Program-made: the position numbers and the translations under genes
In this document: one piece after another, positions 7,784-13,889 of the stretch
Position numbering within the stretch: position 1 is the first letter of the stretch
Layout of the letters: each line of letters starts with the position of its first letter
NCBI GenBank assembly: GCA_964373795.1
Contig: CAYJVY010000007.1
Coordinates: 30,001 to 62,000 of the forward strand
Direction of reading: 5' to 3'
Length of the DNA stretch: 32,000 nt
From: an uncultured archaeon
GTDB taxonomy: Archaea; Iainarchaeota; Iainarchaeia; Iainarchaeales; DATDZZ01
Notes under the pieces: generated by a model
Seen by the model: the letters and a program-made list of their open reading frames with translations, nothing else
The model's database searches: none
What the model was told of the DNA's origin: nothing

Positions 7784-8413
7784 ATGGCAATTAAAGCAGT
7801 TATATTCGATTTATTTAATACTCTTGTCAAATGCGGCAATCCAGAGGGAAGAATGATTAAAGAATTCAACCTACAACTTGATTACTATGAAGTTGAACGA
7901 ATCTCTAACAGTGTTAACGAGCATTCAGAAGAAAAGTATGCACAAATTCTTTTACAAGAATTTGGCTTGCCTTTGTCAAAACAAAACTTGAATAAAATGC
8001 TTAAAGTTTTTGAAATAGAAAAAGGTTTCCTTGAATTGTTTTCTGATTCAATTCCTGTTTTAGAGGAATTAAAAAAACAAGGCTTGAAAGTAGGTTTGAT
8101 TTCAAACTCTCTTCCTTTTTTAATGCCAAAACTTGAAGAACCAAAATTTCAAAATTTAATGCATAAATTTGATGTAGTTATTCTTTCAGAAAAAATCGGA
8201 ATTGTAAAACCTAACCCAAAAATTTTTCAAATGTGTATTAAAAAACTTAAAGTAAAACCATTCGAAGCTTTAATGGTTGGAGATTCTTTAAGAAACGATT
8301 TCCAAGGCGCAGAAAAAACCGGAATGAATGCATTACTATTAGATAGAGCTAATGAAAAAGATTTTTCTAAAAAAATTTCTTCTTTGAATGAAATAATGAA
8401 TTTTTTAGAGTAA
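7784..8413 (+). CDS. HAD-superfamily hydrolase, subfamily IA (dehalogenase-like)
   Basis: 209 aa. Motif I VIFDLFNTL, motif II LISNS, motif III Lys in GIVKPNPKIF, motif IV VGDSLRND. AGTGA SD-like motif upstream. Confidence 0.85.
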   Translation: MAIKAVIFDLFNTLVKCGNPEGRMIKEFNLQLDYYEVERISNSVNEHSEEKYAQILLQEFGLPLSKQNLNKMLKVFEIEKGFLELFSDSIPVLEELKKQGLKVGLISNSLPFLMPKLEEPKFQNLMHKFDVVILSEKIGIVKPNPKIFQMCIKKLKVKPFEALMVGDSLRNDFQGAEKTGMNALLLDRANEKDFSKKISSLNEIMNFLE

Positions 8414-8416
8414 GGA

Positions 8417-9148
8417 TTACTTTTTTCCCGGTCTGCGTTTTTTCAAGCTCCTCCAAAGCTTGTAAAAATGTTTTCTAAAAGATTTAGCTAAATCTTCGCT
8501 TTCAATCAAAATTGTTGTAATTACGGGTTCCCAAATAATTATTATTGTTTTATTTCCATAAACTGCAATTGGAATGTTATGGAAAAATTCTTTTGGAATA
8601 AATCTATATTCAGATGTTTTAGCTCCAAAAGTTTTGCATCCTTCAAAGGTTATTAGTTTTTCTTTAAGTGCTCTAGTTGAATCAACTTCTTTAGTGTATT
8701 GCTTGAAATGCAAGTAATCTAAATCGTAAAAATTTTGTTCATCTATTCCCCATCCAACGAATTCTCCGCCTGTTTTAAGGCCATCTTTATAAATGAAATG
8801 AATTGCTTCTAACCCTTTGAATACTTCTACTTTTACATCCTTTTTTTCTGTTTGAGTGATTTTTTTCAAATCAGCTATGCTGTTTTCAAAATTTTTTTGT
8901 TTTTGTTTTAATAATTCGTTAATGTGTTCAGGATTTGTAGATGAAAAATATTTAACATTTTCTTTAATGTTGGATGAAACAAAACCTTTTTCTTGTAACT
9001 TTAAAAGCATGTAATAAGTTGTTGTTCTGTCAAAACCCAAATCTTCAGCAACCTTGCTTGCAGGAGCAGAACCTCTTTTAAGTAAGCTAACATATATTTT
9101 TGTTTCATTTTCAGTTAACCCTATTTCTTGCAAAGGAGCTGTATTCAT
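8417..9148 (-). CDS. TrmB-family transcriptional regulator (winged HTH plus C-terminal effector domain)
   Basis: N-terminus MNTAPLQEIGLTENETKIYVSLLKRGSAPASKVAEDLGFDRTTTYYMLLKLQEKGFVS matches the TrmB HTH layout. The ORF track extends it to a GTG at 9196. I prefer the ATG at 9148, which has a TATA-like box 23-32 nt upstream. Confidence 0.85.
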   Translation of the reverse strand: MNTAPLQEIGLTENETKIYVSLLKRGSAPASKVAEDLGFDRTTTYYMLLKLQEKGFVSSNIKENVKYFSSTNPEHINELLKQKQKNFENSIADLKKITQTEKKDVKVEVFKGLEAIHFIYKDGLKTGGEFVGWGIDEQNFYDLDYLHFKQYTKEVDSTRALKEKLITFEGCKTFGAKTSEYRFIPKEFFHNIPIAVYGNKTIIIIWEPVITTILIESEDLAKSFRKHFYKLWRSLKKRRPGKK

Positions 9149-9170
9149 TAACAAATTAGTATTTAAACTA

Positions 9171-9180
9171 TTATTTAAAT
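9171..9180 (-). promoter_or_regulatory. Candidate TATA box for the TrmB-family gene
   Basis: The minus strand reads ATTTAAATAA, 23-32 nt upstream of the ATG at 9148. It lies in the 86-nt divergent spacer 9149-9234. Confidence 0.2.
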
Positions 9181-9201
9181 GTTGTGAATTTTTCACAGCA
9201 A

Positions 9202-9211
9202 GAATATTTAA
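9202..9211 (+). promoter_or_regulatory. Candidate TATA box for the swivel-domain operon
   Basis: AATATTTAAG lies 24-33 nt upstream of the ATG at 9235, with no SD motif before that ATG. This suggests a leaderless first gene. Confidence 0.2.
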
Positions 9212-9234
9212 GCATCTTTTGCATCAATTACTGT

Positions 9235-9561
9235 ATGCAAGGAAAACTCTATTCTGGAAAGCTTTTACGCGGAGACGTTGAAATAAAAGTTCCTGCGGAA
9301 AAAATTAAATATGAATCTAGAACTGAAATAGTTTTAGATTTTATTCAAAGACATATTCTTCAAGAAAAATACAGACTCAAATTTTTGTTTAATGGATTTT
9401 TTCTCTTGCTTTCAATTTTGCTTTCAATGTTTCTTTCCCCATTATTTTTAATTATTGCTTTTCATTTTTTCAAAAAAGCGATGAGGTTTAGTGCTAATTA
9501 TGGTTACACTAAACATATTTCTGAATCAATGGATGCAAAGCAAATGGCTATGATGGATTAA
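9235..9561 (+). CDS. Small membrane protein (108 aa from the ATG; the ORF track starts at GTG 9184), hypothetical
   Basis: MQGKLYSGKLLRGDVEIKV... is followed by a roughly 35-residue hydrophobic stretch (FLFNGFFLLLSILLSMFLSPLFLIIAFHFF). It ends 9 nt before the next gene. The 9184 start would overlap the TrmB ORF. Confidence 0.5.
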   Translation: MQGKLYSGKLLRGDVEIKVPAEKIKYESRTEIVLDFIQRHILQEKYRLKFLFNGFFLLLSILLSMFLSPLFLIIAFHFFKKAMRFSANYGYTKHISESMDAKQMAMMD

Positions 9562-9570
9562 GGTGAAAAA

Positions 9571-9888
9571 ATGTTATTGAAAGGTATTGCCGCAAGTAAA
9601 GGAACTGTGAAAGGAAAGGTCAGAATTGTAAGTAAAAACTCGTCTCCATATGTTTTTGAAGAAGGAGAAGTTTTAGTTACAGAAATAACTGATCCTTCAA
9701 TGGTTCTACTTATTGCAAAAGCTTCTGCAATAATTACTGATATTGGTGGAATAATGAGTCATCCCGCAATTGTTGCTCGTGAGTTTGGAATTCCCTGCAT
9801 TGTTGGAGTAAAAAATGCGACAAAGATTTTGAAAAATGGTCAAGAGGTTGTTGTTAATGGAGAAACTGGAGAAATTAAATTATACTGA
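9571..9888 (+). CDS. Stand-alone PEP-utilizing-enzyme mobile (phosphohistidine swivel) domain protein
   Basis: The 105 aa cover just the swivel domain: GIAASKGTVKGKVRIV...GEVLVTEITDPSMVLLIAKASAIITDIGGIMSHPAIVAREFGIPCIVG...VVVNGETGEIKLY. This is as in PEP synthase / PPDK / enzyme I, with the phospho-acceptor His retained in GGxxSH. GGTGA SD at 9563-9567. Confidence 0.85.
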   Translation: MLLKGIAASKGTVKGKVRIVSKNSSPYVFEEGEVLVTEITDPSMVLLIAKASAIITDIGGIMSHPAIVAREFGIPCIVGVKNATKILKNGQEVVVNGETGEIKLY

Positions 9889-10957
9889 TTTTAAATGGAT
9901 TAAGCCTTTTCAGGAATCAATTTTTCATACTCTTGGAGAAATGGATTTATCAACTATTGAACCATTTAATTGGCTTGATTTTCATGTCTTGTTTGATAAA
10001 CCTTTTTTAGAGAAAACTTTGAATTTAATTAATAAATGCTATGAAAAAAGAATTTCAATTAAAAAATTAGTTAAAGAATTTGATAATCCTTCTGAATTAA
10101 GAGTAATTCTTTACTTTCTTTTAACTGACATAAAATCAGTTAAGCTAAGTAAACCACAGAGATTAAAAATTGCTTATTTTTTTAAAAGAATTTTAGACGA
10201 ATCAGTTTTAGAAGATCATTTTGGTTTTGAATCAACAATAATTCACTCTGATATACAGGTTCATGAACTGCTTAAATTAATTCCTTTTTTCCATGCAAAT
10301 TCTAGTCTTACTTTTAATGCTGCTAGAATTTTTAATGCAGGTTATCATTTGACTAATGGATTATATTTTGATTTTTACATGGATTTTTCTCATGAAAATT
10401 ATGGGCCTTATATGATTAAAGAAGACAGCGAAACAGAAACTTTTATTATTAAAAAATTTCACAACTTAAAACCGTTGTGTTTATGGCCTGAAATGATTGA
10501 ATCGAATTTCAATAATATAACTATTTATGCAATCTATAAAAATATTGAATTCAAGTCTCAATTTGTTTCAAGTCATGCTTATCTTAATTCTTCAGCAAAA
10601 GATTCGTTAATTAAAATTGCAATTAAAGTTGATGAAAAATTTCTTTCCGAGCAAGAAATTAGCATTCTAGCAGATCACCTAGAGGTAGTTTCAGTTAATC
10701 AGTGGAATAGACTTAAATCTCTTTCAATTTCTGAGCTTAAAGAAAAAGGTGTTTGGATTAGAAATTATTCGATGAAAAAATTATTTGATTTAGTTGAACT
10801 TGATTGGAAGCCTTCAATTGAAATGATTAAAGCAGTTAAAGAAAGAGAACTTGAAAGGAAGTGGAAGTACTATGTACTTGAAGGAAAAGGAAAAGAGTAT
10901 TGGAGTAAAATCTTAGACCCGCGAGAAGAATTTTTTATAGAGGATGATGTGCAATGA
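9857..10957 (+). CDS. Hypothetical protein (366 aa from ATG 9857; 373 aa from ATG 9836), no family recognised
   Basis: A long, clean ORF. GAGGT lies 9 nt upstream of the ATG at 9857. It overlaps the 3' end of the swivel gene by 32 nt (53 nt if the start is 9836); ATG 9941 is another possible start. The stop overlaps the next gene start (ATGA). Confidence 0.7.
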   Translation: MEKLEKLNYTDFKWIKPFQESIFHTLGEMDLSTIEPFNWLDFHVLFDKPFLEKTLNLINKCYEKRISIKKLVKEFDNPSELRVILYFLLTDIKSVKLSKPQRLKIAYFFKRILDESVLEDHFGFESTIIHSDIQVHELLKLIPFFHANSSLTFNAARIFNAGYHLTNGLYFDFYMDFSHENYGPYMIKEDSETETFIIKKFHNLKPLCLWPEMIESNFNNITIYAIYKNIEFKSQFVSSHAYLNSSAKDSLIKIAIKVDEKFLSEQEISILADHLEVVSVNQWNRLKSLSISELKEKGVWIRNYSMKKLFDLVELDWKPSIEMIKAVKERELERKWKYYVLEGKGKEYWSKILDPREEFFIEDDVQ

Positions 10958-11532
10958 AATTAATTTCTTTTGGTTTGAAGGAACTTGCTTTAACTGTAAT
11001 TATTTATTTAACAATATTTTTTTTAATTCCTCTAGAGTTTGATGTATTTTTGCATCTAACTATTTTCTATGTAGTTCATTTAATTGTTTTATTTTTTTTG
11101 AGTTTATTTAAAGAGAAAAAAACAATTATCTTTGATTTTGTGGATGTAGTGAGTGATAATAATTATTTTACTGAGCCTTTTAGAATTCGTCCTGGAATTC
11201 CTCAAATAGTGAAAAATTTGAGGAAAGGTCATGAAGTTGTTTTGTTTACTAATAACAATAAATTGGTTGCCGATAATATTGCAAAAGAATTAAAACTCGG
11301 AAAAATGTTTGATAAACTTTATAGTTCTGGAGATGTTGGAATTGCTAAACCCGATCCGAAAGCTTACAAGGCCTTACTGAATAAATTAAGTGTTTCCTCA
11401 GATAAAGCAGTTATGATTGACGACAATAAGGATAATATTGAAGGGGCCATCAAAGCTGGCTTAGATGGAGTATTATTTAAAAGCACGGGAGAATTATTGT
11501 TTGATTTACAGTCAAGAAAACTCTTAAGGTAA
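10954..11532 (+). CDS. Membrane-anchored minimal HAD-superfamily hydrolase
   Basis: Two N-terminal hydrophobic helices (LALTVIIYLTIFFLIPL; LTIFYVVHLIVLFFLSLF) precede a HAD core: motif I IIFDFVDVV, motif II LFTNN, motif III GIAKPDPKAY, motif IV MIDDNKDN. Confidence 0.8.
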   Translation: MKLISFGLKELALTVIIYLTIFFLIPLEFDVFLHLTIFYVVHLIVLFFLSLFKEKKTIIFDFVDVVSDNNYFTEPFRIRPGIPQIVKNLRKGHEVVLFTNNNKLVADNIAKELKLGKMFDKLYSSGDVGIAKPDPKAYKALLNKLSVSSDKAVMIDDNKDNIEGAIKAGLDGVLFKSTGELLFDLQSRKLLR

Positions 11533-11558: not shown

Positions 11559-11909
11559 CTATTTCCATTCGAGTTTGTCTCTTAAACTTATTTTTCCTTT
11601 AATTGTTTTTGGTGGAAGCTCAATAATGTATTTTGCTTTCAGTTTTGGAGTGTAATTTAAACTCCACGGTTGAAGATTTTCTACTAAATCTATTACTTTT
11701 TTTTCTTCATTTAAGAAAACCACGTCTATTGGAGTGAAAACAAACAGCATGTGAATTGATGCTCCAATCATTGTTTCAGAATTTAAGTGAAAAATTAACG
11801 CGAAATCAATTTTTTTTTGAAACATTAAACCTTTTGCTTTAGAGAAAAAGTTTTTCGCATGTTTTACTTTTTTTATTATAATTTTTTTAGTTGTATTGTT
11901 TTCCAACAT
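11559..11909 (-). CDS. DUF192 (COG1430) family protein
   Basis: 116 aa. KGLMFQKK...HMLFVFTPIDVVFLNEEKKVIDLVENLQPW...YIIELP fits the DUF192 pattern. Confidence 0.75.
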   Translation of the reverse strand: MLENNTTKKIIIKKVKHAKNFFSKAKGLMFQKKIDFALIFHLNSETMIGASIHMLFVFTPIDVVFLNEEKKVIDLVENLQPWSLNYTPKLKAKYIIELPPKTIKGKISLRDKLEWK

Positions 11910-13061: not shown

Positions 13062-13134
13062 AGCCCCGTAGTGTAGCGGTCAATCACGGTGGGTTCTGAA
13101 CCCGCAAACAGGAGTTCGACTCTCCTCGGGGCTA
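13062..13134 (+). tRNA. tRNA-Gln (anticodon CUG)
   Basis: Hand-folded cloverleaf. Acceptor AGCCCCG/CGGGGCT (A1-U72). D arm GUG(U)-AGCGGUCAA-(U)CAC. Anticodon stem GUGGG/CCCGC with loop UUCUGAA. 4-nt variable loop. T arm AGGAG-UUCGACU-CUCCU. Discriminator A. No encoded CCA. Confidence 0.9.
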
Positions 13135-13181: not shown

Positions 13182-13889
13182 ATGCAAAAAAAACTTGCAA
13201 TTTTTGATGTTCACGGAACACTTGTTTTTGCTTTGCCTGCATGGGACAAAGCTTACAGCAAAACAGTTTTTGAATTATTTAGAGTGAATGGTTCAATCTA
13301 TGATGCTTTCTTTTTTGCTGCCCCAACAATTCAAGAAGTTTCAAAGGCAATTGCAAAATCAAAAGGCGTTTCTGAAAAAGAATTAAAAGAAAAAGAGCAC
13401 TTGATTTTGAAAACCTTTGAAAAGCATGCAATAAACGCTTTACACGAATTGCCTCCCAAAATCTTGCTTGGAGTGAAAGAATTGCTTAAACTATTGCATG
13501 AAAACAACTTTGTTATTGCTTTGTATACTGGAGATTCTTTTAATAATAGTAAACTGATTTTAAAACAAACTTTTTTGAAACAATTTTTCAATGAAAAATT
13601 GTTTGCCTGTGCAAGTGACTCTGGAGAACTTAGTAGAAGAAAGACTTTGGAAGAAGCAATTAAAAAAGCTGAGAAAAAGTTTGGAAAATTTGAAAAGAAA
13701 AATATTTTTGTTTTTGATGATTCAACTAAAGGATTAAATGCAGGAAAAGAGCTTGAAATTAAAACTGTTGCAGTTAATACAGTGCCAGAAAAATTTGAAA
13801 AACTGGAAAAATGTAATCCAAATTACTTGTTTAAGGATTTTAGTTCTCCTGAAAAGGTATTTAAAACAATTTTTCAAGAAAATTTGTGA
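13182..13889 (+). CDS. HAD-superfamily hydrolase
   Basis: Start re-set to MQKKLAIFDVHGTLV (motif I close to the N-terminus), because the ORF-track GTG start at 13089 lies inside the tRNA. Motif II LYTGD; motif IV VFDDSTKG. Confidence 0.75.
   Translation: MQKKLAIFDVHGTLVFALPAWDKAYSKTVFELFRVNGSIYDAFFFAAPTIQEVSKAIAKSKGVSEKELKEKEHLILKTFEKHAINALHELPPKILLGVKELLKLLHENNFVIALYTGDSFNNSKLILKQTFLKQFFNEKLFACASDSGELSRRKTLEEAIKKAEKKFGKFEKKNIFVFDDSTKGLNAGKELEIKTVAVNTVPEKFEKLEKCNPNYLFKDFSSPEKVFKTIFQENL

Follow-up and report, generated by a model that had tools for sequence, protein, structure and literature searches.

The 32-kb stretch of archaeal DNA analyzed here (the window) holds four closely packed genes on the plus strand and, divergent from them, a gene for a TrmB-like regulator on the minus strand (8417 to 9148, 243 aa). 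Gene 1 (9235 to 9561) encodes a small predicted membrane protein of 108 aa, gene 2 (9571 to 9888) a stand-alone phosphohistidine swivel of 105 aa (termed SHP type), gene 3 (9857 or 9836 to 10957) a protein of 366 or 373 aa that is the founding member of the family termed G3 here, and gene 4 (10954 to 11532) a cap-less HAD protein of 192 aa with a predicted membrane anchor. This tight layout had been described in an earlier reading of the DNA (the sequence-only reading), and the junction coordinates confirm it. Genes 1 and 2 are separated by a 9-nt gap that contains a ribosome-binding site (AGGTGA), genes 2 and 3 overlap by 32 or 53 nt depending on the start codon, with a GAGG about 10 nt upstream of the ATG at 9857, and genes 3 and 4 overlap in an ATGA start/stop, with a GAGGA about 9 nt upstream of the gene 4 start. 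In all likelihood, the four genes are cotranscribed, and since the next gene (DUF192, 11559 to 11909) is convergent with gene 4, the transcription unit stops at gene 4.

The TrmB-like gene and gene 1 share an 86-nt promoter region (9149 to 9234). Its minus strand carries two exact TTTAAATA boxes (9160 to 9167 and 9172 to 9179), the second of which is centered about 27 nt upstream of the TrmB ATG. TATA-like boxes had been claimed at about 27 nt from each ATG; this holds on the regulator side, but gene 1 has just a looser AATATTTAAG A/T box (9203 to 9212), about 28 nt upstream of its start. The TTTAAATA-type motif is not enriched over the window as a whole (17 occurrences observed and 16.2 expected by chance).

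A stand-alone swivel protein under purifying selection

The gene 2 protein consists of the swivel (mobile) domain only, as had been read from the sequence: PF00391 is its sole Pfam match and covers its full length (E = 5e-28). The GG-x-x-x-H pattern is present in the motif GGIMSH64PAIVAREFGIPC, which carries the catalytic His64. In NCBIfam, the protein matches the swivel segments of PpsA, RPH, and PigC, the best matches corresponding to residues 353 to 460 of PpsA, and it weakly matches PtsI and DhaM. We found 67 stand-alone swivel homologues of gene 2.

The sequence-only reading had raised the possibility that gene 2 is a decaying ppsA fragment in which the His would be lost among orthologues. 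Comparison with a 93.7%-identical strain (L041) gave a dN of 0.025 and a dS of 0.152 for gene 2 (dN/dS of 0.17), and the swivel His is kept in 99% of 97 stand-alone homologues. Purifying selection (dN/dS of about 0.1 to 0.2) and His conservation thus rule out the decaying fragment, and they support the view that the protein is a genuine, selected swivel that would act as a His-bearing phospho-carrier.

The G3 family and its predicted fold

Gene 3 has no sequence match in Pfam, NCBIfam, or the PDB, and 103 G3 members searched against Pfam likewise gave none. A word-index homology search with gene 3 retrieved the query itself only, and a profile built from 103 sequences retrieved just 6 proteins, so an exhaustive HMMER search was needed to delineate the family; it yielded 233 representative clusters at 50% identity (E ≤ 1e-3). 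Gene 3 had earlier been described as an orphan without a placeable motif; it is not an orphan but belongs to a sizeable family. Gene 3 is also under purifying selection (dN/dS of about 0.11 against L041), and the conserved polar residues of G3 are R82, D120, D172, E180, H240, D259, and K307.

An AlphaFold2 (AF2) prediction from the single sequence was uninformative (pLDDT of 37). The AF2 model of gene 3 that we used is very confident (pLDDT of 95.5, pTM of 0.93) and shows, in order, a helical bundle, an antiparallel sheet, and further helices, an alpha+beta arrangement and not a barrel. Together with the conserved acidic, basic, and His residues, this model gives G3 an enzyme-like character. 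Foldseek searches of this model against the PDB and BFVD gave no match at E ≤ 1e-3, and the model suggests that G3 adopts a previously undescribed alpha+beta fold. A cryptic ATP-grasp or PEP-binding barrel in gene 3, which the sequence-only reading had proposed to look for, was not found: the 103 members gave no Pfam match, hhalign against PPDK_N gave a probability of 0.6%, and the model is neither a barrel nor a grasp fold. At the available sensitivity, G3 is not an RPH rifampin (RIF)-binding domain either (hhalign probability of 0.2% against RPH-like paralogues), and no RPH chain is among the best 50 Foldseek matches listed for G3. A phage origin received no support from tblastn against phage genomes or from fold matches in BFVD, and PADLOC returned no match to a defense system.

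The swivel-G3 pair in related loci

From the gene neighborhoods around homologues of G3 and of the stand-alone swivel, we obtained 28 distinct loci, 26 of which include upstream DNA. In all 26, the swivel gene lies directly before the G3 gene, is fused to it, or is parted from it by a second unannotated domain of about 320 aa alone, which we termed DX; of the gene neighborhood that the sequence-only reading had suggested surveying, the swivel-G3 part is thus conserved. The junctions between swivel and G3 genes are always overlaps or gaps of at most 7 nt. Natural fusions of swivel and G3 occur in P0070, P0079, and P0092, where the swivel is Pfam confirmed, and about 10 further proteins of 450 to 490 aa have the same layout, as judged from their length and match position. 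Since adjacency is found in 26/26 loci and the two are naturally fused, the comparison supports the view that the G3 protein is a dedicated partner of the swivel. Our literature searches turned up no account of a G3-type partner for a stand-alone swivel.

The pair is accompanied by different partners. Nine of the 28 loci (those with organism names being Patescibacteria [CPR]) have a PPDK_N ATP-grasp gene in cis, and in one protein (P0169) G3 is fused to PPDK_N. Several of these PPDK_N loci hold arrays of RPH/HpeH-like paralogues that match RPH beyond its swivel (5FBS residues 634 to 866). Two single chains of about 790 aa (P0113 and P0125) have the order DX-swivel-G3, which is PpsA-like. The DX loci carry two different His-bearing swivels, of SHP type and TCH type; comparisons of DX with PPDK_N, G3, and RPH-type domains gave no signal of a divergent relationship. 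Elsewhere, as in L020, L037, and L024 among others, the swivel and G3 have no third partner nearby. The organism-named G3 loci belong to CPR bacteria and DPANN archaea.

In a rough neighbor-joining tree, the window G3 falls into a nine-locus clade with L010, L026, L012, L016, L022, L014, L024, and L021, of which L016 and L021 are named archaeal metagenome-assembled genomes and L010 and L012 have a gene content that marks them as archaeal. PPDK_N is absent in cis from all nine loci. Where the flank suffices, the extra partner is instead DX (L012, L016, and L022) or a HAD with transmembrane (TM) helices (the window, L010, and L026), whereas outside the clade PPDK_N or a further G3 (P0069, L018, and L036) serves as the second partner. 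We also scanned the window together with 4 kb of left flank from a Logan contig (36 kb in all) by six-frame HMM search (with --max) and tblastn, and found no PPDK_N, PEP-binding barrel, DX, or RPH-type domain, which agrees with the earlier statement that ATP-grasp and PEP barrel are absent from the window. The further idea that the relay is self-contained is not supported, given that PPDK_N stands beside the pair in 9/28 loci and that a G3+PPDK_N fusion exists.

The HAD protein, the regulator, and gene 1

The gene 4 protein matches the Pfam families Hydrolase (3e-19), HAD_2 (9e-17), and NIF (1.3e-8), as well as the glucose-1-phosphatase PRK09456 (5.6e-17), and has a YihX-like HAD core. Its hydrophobic N-terminal stretch (residues 3 to 55) is read as two TM helices, and TM-TM-cap-less HAD orthologues lie directly after G3 in L010 and L026, which have a GC content of 0.59 (0.29 in the window). 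The claim that gene 4 is a membrane-tethered HAD-fold protein thus finds support in the family matches, the hydropathy, and this recurrence. Like YihX-type HAD-IA proteins, gene 4 retains motifs II to IV (T99, K132, and D156-D157). Unlike them, it has its cap deleted, with about 37 residues between motifs I and II, likewise in L010; in HADs that have one, a C1 or C2 cap closes the active site for small substrates. In both Pfam and NCBIfam, the profiles are matched over their C-terminal two thirds only, Pfam positions 1 to 79 being unmatched. Motif I (FDFVDVV) has the nucleophile Asp61, but the second Asp of the HAD consensus DxDx(T/V), at position +2, is V63 (His in the HADs of L010 and L026). 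This replacement is unusual for a plain phosphatase, yet E. coli YihX also has no Asp at +2 and is an active glucose-1-phosphatase. Cap-less HADs typically act on macromolecules, and in CTDNEP1/Dullard a cap-less core follows a membrane anchor at the N terminus, a layout that gene 4, with its NIF match, resembles. The HAD is present in 3 of the 28 loci, which represent two lineages (the window and the GC-rich archaeal L010/L026). We saw no fusion of the HAD with swivel or G3 and found no report of a HAD genetically coupled to a swivel-G3 pair.

The TrmB-like protein contains the PF01978 winged helix in residues 22 to 89 (E = 6.7e-15, 55 bits). It shares with the sugar sensors of the TrmB family this N-terminal winged HTH and a position divergent from the presumed target operon, but it has 243 aa and its C-terminal half (about 150 aa) has no match to the TrmB sugar-binding domain in Pfam or NCBIfam. 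The NCBIfam model TrmBL1 matches residues 6 to 117 only, with 39.7 bits against a cutoff of 650, and the TrmB equivalogs as a whole score 14 to 40 bits against cutoffs of 500 to 650. The label of sugar-type regulator is therefore not supported. Regulators adjoining the module in L002 are homologous to the protein along its entire length, and TrmB-like genes flank the module in 7/28 related loci.

Gene 1 has a single hydrophobic stretch of 33 residues (48 to 80), consistent with the small membrane protein proposed earlier. It has no family match in Pfam or NCBIfam searches, and its homologues are absent from the other related loci searched, making it lineage specific. It is retained in strain L041 with a dN/dS of about 0.16 (small counts).

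Discussion

We propose that a swivel-type phosphotransferase, belonging to the PEP-utilizing-enzyme/dikinase superfamily, is here split over separate genes and that genes 2 and 3 are its conserved two-gene core, a reading that we consider moderately probable and that best explains the whole. The 105-aa swivel would carry phosphate on His64 and dock onto the 366-aa G3 protein, which would pass the phosphate to a second substrate, X; the flow of phosphate from swivel to X is the direction we favor. G3 would thereby stand in, with an unrelated fold, for the PEP/pyruvate barrel of PpsA or the rifampin-binding domain of RPH and HpeH. Since genes 2 and 3 are translationally coupled, the two proteins are expected to be made in equal amounts. 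The TrmB-like regulator, which travels with the module, would control the operon from the shared divergent promoter.

The phosphate on His64 would come from a donor domain that acts in trans and has its gene beyond the window. The most likely donor is an ATP-grasp (PPDK_N) protein like that of the relatives in Patescibacteria, and the PPDK_N association in these relatives suggests that the reaction would be ATP + X + H2O -> AMP + X-P + Pi. The presence of PPDK_N in cis in 9/28 loci and in fusion with G3 places the G3 family in the world of ATP-dependent dikinases, and the donor may here be encoded elsewhere. An ATP-grasp acting in trans in the lineage of the window is nevertheless our assumption, because PPDK_N is not found in cis in the nine-locus clade. 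The cap-less HAD, which would be tethered at the cytoplasmic face of the membrane, may hydrolyze or transfer the phosphate of the product, or it may act on a downstream phospho-intermediate, probably bulky or membrane associated.

The swivel-G3 core is most like the small-molecule dikinases RPH, HpeHI, and PpsAB, with a new second-substrate domain. In RPH, HpeHI, CreHI, and PpsAB, the swivel His shuttles between the PPDK_N ATP-grasp site and a second-substrate domain that is not a barrel (PMC12167813, PMC4844700), and in the two-component systems HpeHI, CreHI, and PpsAB, the last being phenylphosphate synthase, the ATP-grasp is a separate subunit and does not bind its partner stably (PMC12167813). 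The Patescibacteria clusters similarly combine G3 and swivel, RPH/HpeH-like paralogues, and one PPDK_N gene. In contrast to RPH and HpeH, where the swivel is the C terminus of the partner, the swivel of the G3 systems is a separate upstream gene, and the window variant has a membrane HAD instead of an ATP-grasp in cis. As G3 has no detectable homology to the RIF-binding or HpeH substrate domain (see the hhalign result above), it is by position and analogy that we designate it a putative catalytic domain for the second substrate (acceptor).

The resemblance to PpsA and PPDK is clearest in the fused proteins P0113 and P0125, whose N-domain-swivel-C-domain layout and length mirror PpsA. Here, however, the C-terminal partner is G3 and not a PEP-binding TIM barrel, the N-terminal partner is DX and not PPDK_N, and the window swivel has Met in place of the regulatory Thr that precedes the His. 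The swivel-G3 pair looks like a broken-up relative of the ATP-driven dikinases. PTS Enzyme I/HPr and DhaM have a homologous swivel His domain and offer a precedent for small phospho-carriers, but there is no PEP-binding barrel, HPr, or EIIA/B/C among the proteins of the window.

The absence of PPDK_N from the window clade, where DX or the TM-HAD is found whenever the flank is sufficient, could also be read as a relay that works without an ATP-grasp. The swivel would then shuttle phosphate, in either direction, between G3 and Asp61 of the HAD at the membrane, resulting in an ATP-independent transphosphorylation or a signaling-type His-Asp transfer. Such a relay would obey the rule of a swivel with two catalytic domains if the HAD is counted as the second. 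It would also suit a HAD that has no cap, as is typical of those acting on macromolecules, that has no water-activating Asp at +2, and whose catalytic domain is predicted to be cytoplasmic by the positive-inside rule. However, the contact between swivel and HAD is putative and no fusion joins the HAD to swivel or G3, the HAD occurs in only two lineages (3/28 loci), HADs without Asp at +2 can be ordinary phosphatases, as YihX is, and phosphate transfer between a PEP-utilizer swivel and a HAD has no known precedent. We therefore regard this relay as unlikely. We give equally little credence to its fullest form, in which swivel, G3, and TM-HAD would be a complete ATP-grasp-independent His-Asp machine at the cytoplasmic face, unrelated to classical two-component systems, and G3 and DX would be new catalytic folds replacing both canonical dikinase partner domains in DPANN archaea.

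Less likely again is that G3 is the loading domain, taking phosphate from PEP, ATP, an acyl phosphate, or polyphosphate, with the swivel as a diffusible HPr-like carrier and the HAD and gene 1 as loosely related passengers. The free-standing 105-aa swivel does recall HPr in the PTS, the conserved acidic and basic residues of G3 would suit Mg and phosphate binding, loci such as L020, L037, and L024 pair swivel and G3 without a third partner, and the SHP-type and TCH-type swivels of the DX loci hint at carrier-to-carrier transfer. Against this, the recognized donor PPDK_N adjoins G3 or is fused to it (P0169), which puts G3 on the acceptor side, and the strict 1:1 translational coupling and the swivel+G3 fusions favor a swivel of the intramolecular type. 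Finally, the pair could be a nonfunctional relic, left over when a dikinase lost its ATP-grasp, with an operon look that is incidental. The lack of a donor domain in the 36 kb scanned would fit this, as would an organism that appears to be a reduced-genome, low-GC archaeon, but we consider it very improbable. The dN/dS is 0.11 to 0.17 against a strain that diverges by 6% at the nucleotide level, and the reading frames are undisrupted; the His, every swivel motif, the ribosome-binding sites, and the coupled starts are intact; a very distant lineage retains the swivel-G3-HAD trio; and no orthologue has a frameshift or a lost His.

Swivel enzymes such as PpsA, PPDK, PTS Enzyme I, glucan water dikinase, and RPH are textbook cases of phosphate transfer by domain motion. 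The split phosphotransferase that we favor would add to them a family of large, putative second-substrate domains, G3, with at least 233 clusters, unannotated and without a fold match in the PDB, which is genetically tied to its own stand-alone swivel in every informative locus. It would also add a second unannotated partner domain, DX, and a variant in which a membrane HAD takes the place of the usual ATP-binding gene. The family provides an annotation handle for hundreds of hypothetical proteins and for many fragments of "PEP-utilizing enzyme" that are now mislabeled as pyruvate, water dikinase. The G3 hosts with organism names are ultrasmall, symbiotic CPR and DPANN organisms whose metabolism is mostly uncharted, and the finding opens to experiment the questions of whether charging a swivel requires an ATP-grasp and of what these organisms phosphorylate, scavenged metabolites, lipids, glycans, and antibiotics being candidates.

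Organization of the operon and conservation of the swivel

ORF listing, together with inspection of the sequence itself, confirmed the compact + strand cluster of four genes that the sequence-only reading had described, with a TrmB-like gene (8417-9148, - strand) diverging from it across an 86-nt spacer (9149-9234). Gene 1 (9235-9561, 108 aa) is separated by a 9-nt gap containing AGGTGA from gene 2 (9571-9888, 105 aa), which encodes the swivel. Gene 2 overlaps gene 3 by 32 nt if the latter starts at ATG 9857 (366 aa, with GAGG ∼10 nt upstream) or by 53 nt if it starts at ATG 9836 (373 aa). Gene 3 ends at 10957 in an ATGA stop/start overlap with gene 4 (10954-11532), upstream of which lies GAGGA at ∼9 nt. 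The next gene, encoding a DUF192 protein (11559-11909), is convergent with gene 4, so the transcription unit stops after gene 4. Within the spacer, TATTTAAA is found in direct repeat with 12-nt spacing (9160-9179; TTTAAATA on the - strand), and this repeat could represent a pair of TATA boxes or an operator for the TrmB-like regulator.

The regulator, proposed to be of the TrmB family, carries a TrmB-type winged helix (Pfam, NCBIfam), but its likeness to TrmB is confined to this domain and a sugar effector is therefore not implied. TrmB-like regulators adjoin the module in seven loci (the window and, among the related loci fetched for comparison, L002, L012, L016/L023, L022, L024, and L036). 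Since the window regulator aligns full-length with those of L002, the regulator travels with the module. Its inducer is probably the substrate.

Gene 2 is, as had been read from the sequence, a PEP-utilizer mobile domain with its catalytic His: the match is full-length (Pfam, NCBIfam; E 5e-28) and the motif GGIMSH64PAIVAREFGIPC is complete. Such stand-alone swivel proteins, of 105 to 131 aa, are common (67 matches), and the few that are source-named are labeled "PEP-utilizing enzyme" or "pyruvate, water dikinase." Selection on the operon was evaluated against L041, a close strain that is 93.7% identical in nucleotides and retains the gene 1-gene 2-gene 3 order. Nei-Gojobori estimates, based on small counts, gave dN 0.025 and dS 0.152 for gene 2, 0.037 and 0.347 for the N-terminal 67 codons of gene 3, and 0.037 and 0.227 for the C-terminal 33 codons of gene 1; the 32-nt overlap of genes 2 and 3 contains no substitution. 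The low dN relative to dS, together with the conservation of the catalytic His in 99% of 97 stand-alone swivels, excludes that gene 2 is a decaying fragment of ppsA.

The window has a GC content of about 29% and also encodes a geranylgeranyl-reductase-like flavoprotein, a cis-prenyltransferase, CarAB, nucleotide-sugar enzymes, glycosyltransferases, and one large Ig-repeat surface protein, a gene content that points to a small archaeon.

Gene 3 belongs to a large unannotated family coupled to swivel domains

Gene 3 had been taken for an orphan, and a word-index search returned only the query itself. When 1.84 billion cluster representatives were searched exhaustively with phmmer, a large unannotated family emerged instead, here called G3; it counts 233 relatives at E ≤ 1e-3, of which 131 reach E ≤ 1e-10. 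Pfam, NCBIfam, PADLOC, and PDB sequences gave no match to gene 3, and none of 103 G3 members matched a Pfam family. The named source organisms are DPANN archaea (Woesearchaeota, Micrarchaeota, and Nanoarchaeota) and CPR bacteria (Staskawiczbacteria, Magasanikiibacteriota, and other Patescibacteria).

From assemblies, GTDB genomes, and metagenomes, we collected the neighborhoods of swivel and G3 homologues; annotation with purpose-built HMMs yielded 28 distinct G3 loci. Swivel and G3 are coupled both genetically and physically: wherever upstream DNA was present (26 loci), G3 directly follows a stand-alone swivel, is fused to a swivel, or is parted from swivels only by DX, a second unannotated domain, and at the swivel-G3 junction the two always overlap or lie ≤7 nt apart. 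A 32- to 35-nt overlap recurs in 11 distinct loci (window 9857-9888, L005, L007, L010, L018, L019, L020, L025, L026, L028, and L029), because the ATG of G3 falls inside the codons, (G/A)AT-GGn, for the V-[D/N]-G motif conserved at the C terminus of the swivel; in the remaining loci, the G3 ATG is found with a 4- to 14-nt overlap or a 1- to 7-nt gap. A +1 slip within the overlap would yield a swivel+G3 fusion, as encoded by the single gene P0070. An overlap of 35 nt was also seen in L009 (113-1319), where a 111-aa stand-alone swivel precedes a protein of 301 aa with no match to the G3 profile; there may be further uncharacterized families that partner swivels.

Predicted fold of G3

AlphaFold2 modeling of G3 from a 103-sequence alignment gave a pLDDT of 95.5 and a pTM of 0.93 (pLDDT 37 for gene 3 as a single sequence). 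The model comprises an N-terminal helical region (∼9-177), a central antiparallel sheet (179-258), and a C-terminal helical region (265-364). At E ≤ 1e-3, Foldseek returned no match from the PDB (best TM, 0.13 to 0.14) or BFVD, a comparison that covers solved structures and viral models only, and within it the modeled G3 is a new fold. Profile-profile comparison detected no relationship of G3 to the N-domains of proteins like rifampin phosphotransferase (RPH), to the ATP-grasp domain PPDK_N, or to DX. The cryptic ATP-grasp or PEP-binding barrel suspected in gene 3 was thus not found, and the model, Foldseek, and the profile comparison together rejected both of these and, at the sensitivity available, an RIF-binding domain as well. 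Conserved across the family are the polar residues R82, D120, D172, E180, H240, D259, K295, and K307 and the aromatic or structural residues P36, Y170, G183, Y185, W210, Y227, W317, and P319, a pattern that fits a catalytic or ligand-binding domain better than a scaffold.

Fusions and gene neighborhoods of G3

We scanned the longer G3-family members (P numbers) for domains. Swivel+G3 fusions were found in P0070, P0079, and P0092, where Pfam confirmed the swivel, and in about 10 more proteins of 450 to 490 aa, judged by length and match position. In P0169, G3 (41-350) is fused to PPDK_N (396-695, E 2e-97), and G3-G3 tandems occur in P0069, P0078, L018, and L036. DX (∼320 aa, 30 to 56% identity among members) is found alone, fused to G3, or in single DX-swivel-G3 chains of ∼790 aa (P0113, 789 aa; P0125, 797 aa); further examples are L022 6667-7602, L012 4206-5141, L016 8972-9961, P0072, P0085, P0089, and P0219. 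Domain scans and profile comparison detected no similarity of DX to PDB, Pfam, or PPDK_N, and DX is a candidate substitute for the nucleotide-binding domain.

A PPDK_N gene lies beside swivel+G3 in nine loci (L002, L004, L005, L007, L017/L030, L025, L027, L031/L032, and L035), and where the organism is named, it belongs to Patescibacteria or is an unclassified bacterium. Arrays of two to six paralogues made of a variable N-domain and a C-terminal swivel also occur in several of these loci, as do loci with no PPDK_N in the fetched DNA, e.g., L019. The paralogue profile matches RPH well outside the swivel (residues 634-866 of structure 5FBS, E 1.6e-27). In Patescibacteria, these RPH/HpeH-like arrays reach six genes (L019 465-11092, L030 1-10038, L031 6-9068, and L004 861-7364), with the paralogues preceding swivel+G3 and, in L004 and L030, a single PPDK_N gene coming last. 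By their order, the arrays look like a set of acceptor modules served by one ATP-loading subunit. Fusions and neighbors together place G3 in the dikinase world.

In L007 (810-10336), the PPDK_N-swivel-G3 cluster lies among SSB, WGR-domain, and phage-integrase genes, suggesting that the module may move on mobile elements; no G3 is encoded in the phage genomes of INPHARED.

The membrane HAD variant of the window clade

In a rough neighbor-joining tree of G3 domains, the window groups with L010, L026, L012, L016, L022, L014, L024, and L021, of which L016 and L021 are MAGs named as archaeal, while gene content marks L010 and L012 as archaeal. The partner type differs by locus (PPDK_N, DX, HAD, or G3-G3), and this rough tree suggests that it tracks phylogeny.

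Gene 4 was rightly read as a membrane-anchored HAD-fold protein: its HAD core (Pfam, NCBIfam) is preceded by a hydrophobic stretch (residues 3-55), the soluble domain comprising residues 56-192. A membrane HAD directly follows G3 in three loci (window, L010, and L026). L010 (GCA_040960315.1) and L026 have a GC content of 59%, and the L010 G3 shares only about 29% identity with that of the window. Despite this divergence, their HAD is built like gene 4: the N terminus is hydrophobic, the cap is missing, motifs II to IV are intact, and motif I lacks the Asp at +2 (FDFVDVV in the window, FDIHGVY in L010/L026). The swivel-G3-membrane HAD trio is thus conserved rather than incidental, yet rare (2 lineages in 28 loci). 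We read the hydrophobic stretch of these HADs as two TM helices, and the positive-inside rule predicts a cytoplasmic catalytic domain. Gene 1 has no counterpart in the other loci.

Within 4 kb of the operon are two more genes of the HAD family (7784-8413 and 13182-13889). Motif I of the latter, FDVHGTL, has His at Asp+2, the same DxH variant as the L010/L026 membrane HAD. Its longest ORF call starts at 13089 and overlaps tRNA-Gln (13062-13134), so the true start is probably ATG 13182.

Three of the nine clade loci contain DX and two His-bearing swivels in tandem, one sharing the "SHP" type of the window swivel and one of the PpsA-like "TCH" type (L012 3564-4216, L016 8106-8896, and L022 6029-6670, the last a fusion of both into a single 213-aa protein). 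This arrangement hints at a dedicated partner domain for each swivel or at a handover of phosphate from carrier to carrier. Between the TrmB-like gene and the swivels, L016 (6890-7948) and L012 (2506-3567) encode proteins of ∼352 aa that are dissimilar by BLAST, the L016 copy having a weak HD-domain match (E 9e-4); by analogy, they may be a further phosphohydrolase partner, the counterpart of the window HAD.

Proposed function of the module

From the association and fusion with PPDK_N, we infer that G3 is the acceptor side; the donor in the window organism would most likely be an ATP-grasp in trans. On the reading with the strongest support, His64 of the swivel would be charged at the donor site, and the charged swivel would dock on G3, which would hold the second substrate and catalyze the transfer. 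The HAD would act on the phosphorylated product or intermediate near the membrane, and the cotraveling TrmB-like regulator would switch the operon.

The absence of the usual swivel partners from the window, already noted from the sequence, was borne out: no PPDK_N, PEP barrel, DX, or RPH-type domain was found in the window and 4 kb of extra left flank (∼36 kb). The lack of a suitable donor within this region and of PPDK_N in cis in all nine loci of the clade keeps alive the reading that the swivel has its second partner in the HAD (in sister loci, in DX), which we regard as unlikely.

In its proposed working, the module resembles the small-molecule dikinases RPH, HpeHI, and PpsAB, and published precedent is close. 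In HpeHI, CreHI, and PpsAB, two-component relatives of RPH, the ATP-grasp is a subunit of its own, which charges the swivel on the substrate-binding subunit without a stable complex (PMC12167813); the architecture of RPH has also been described (PMC4844700). Unlike RPH, HpeHI, and PpsAB, the module has no RIF-BD-type domain. The likeness to PpsA and PPDK is more remote, as the module lacks the PEP barrel; in both comparisons, the window holds no ATP-grasp for the module. P0113 and P0125 match PEP synthase in length and in the order of domains, with both outer domains replaced.

Our literature search found no publication on G3 or DX, nor on a stand-alone swivel partnered in this way. The module defines a large unannotated family of putative enzymes in CPR and DPANN organisms, with a predicted new fold in G3 and a second uncharacterized partner domain in DX, and it raises the concrete question of an ATP-grasp-less variant.
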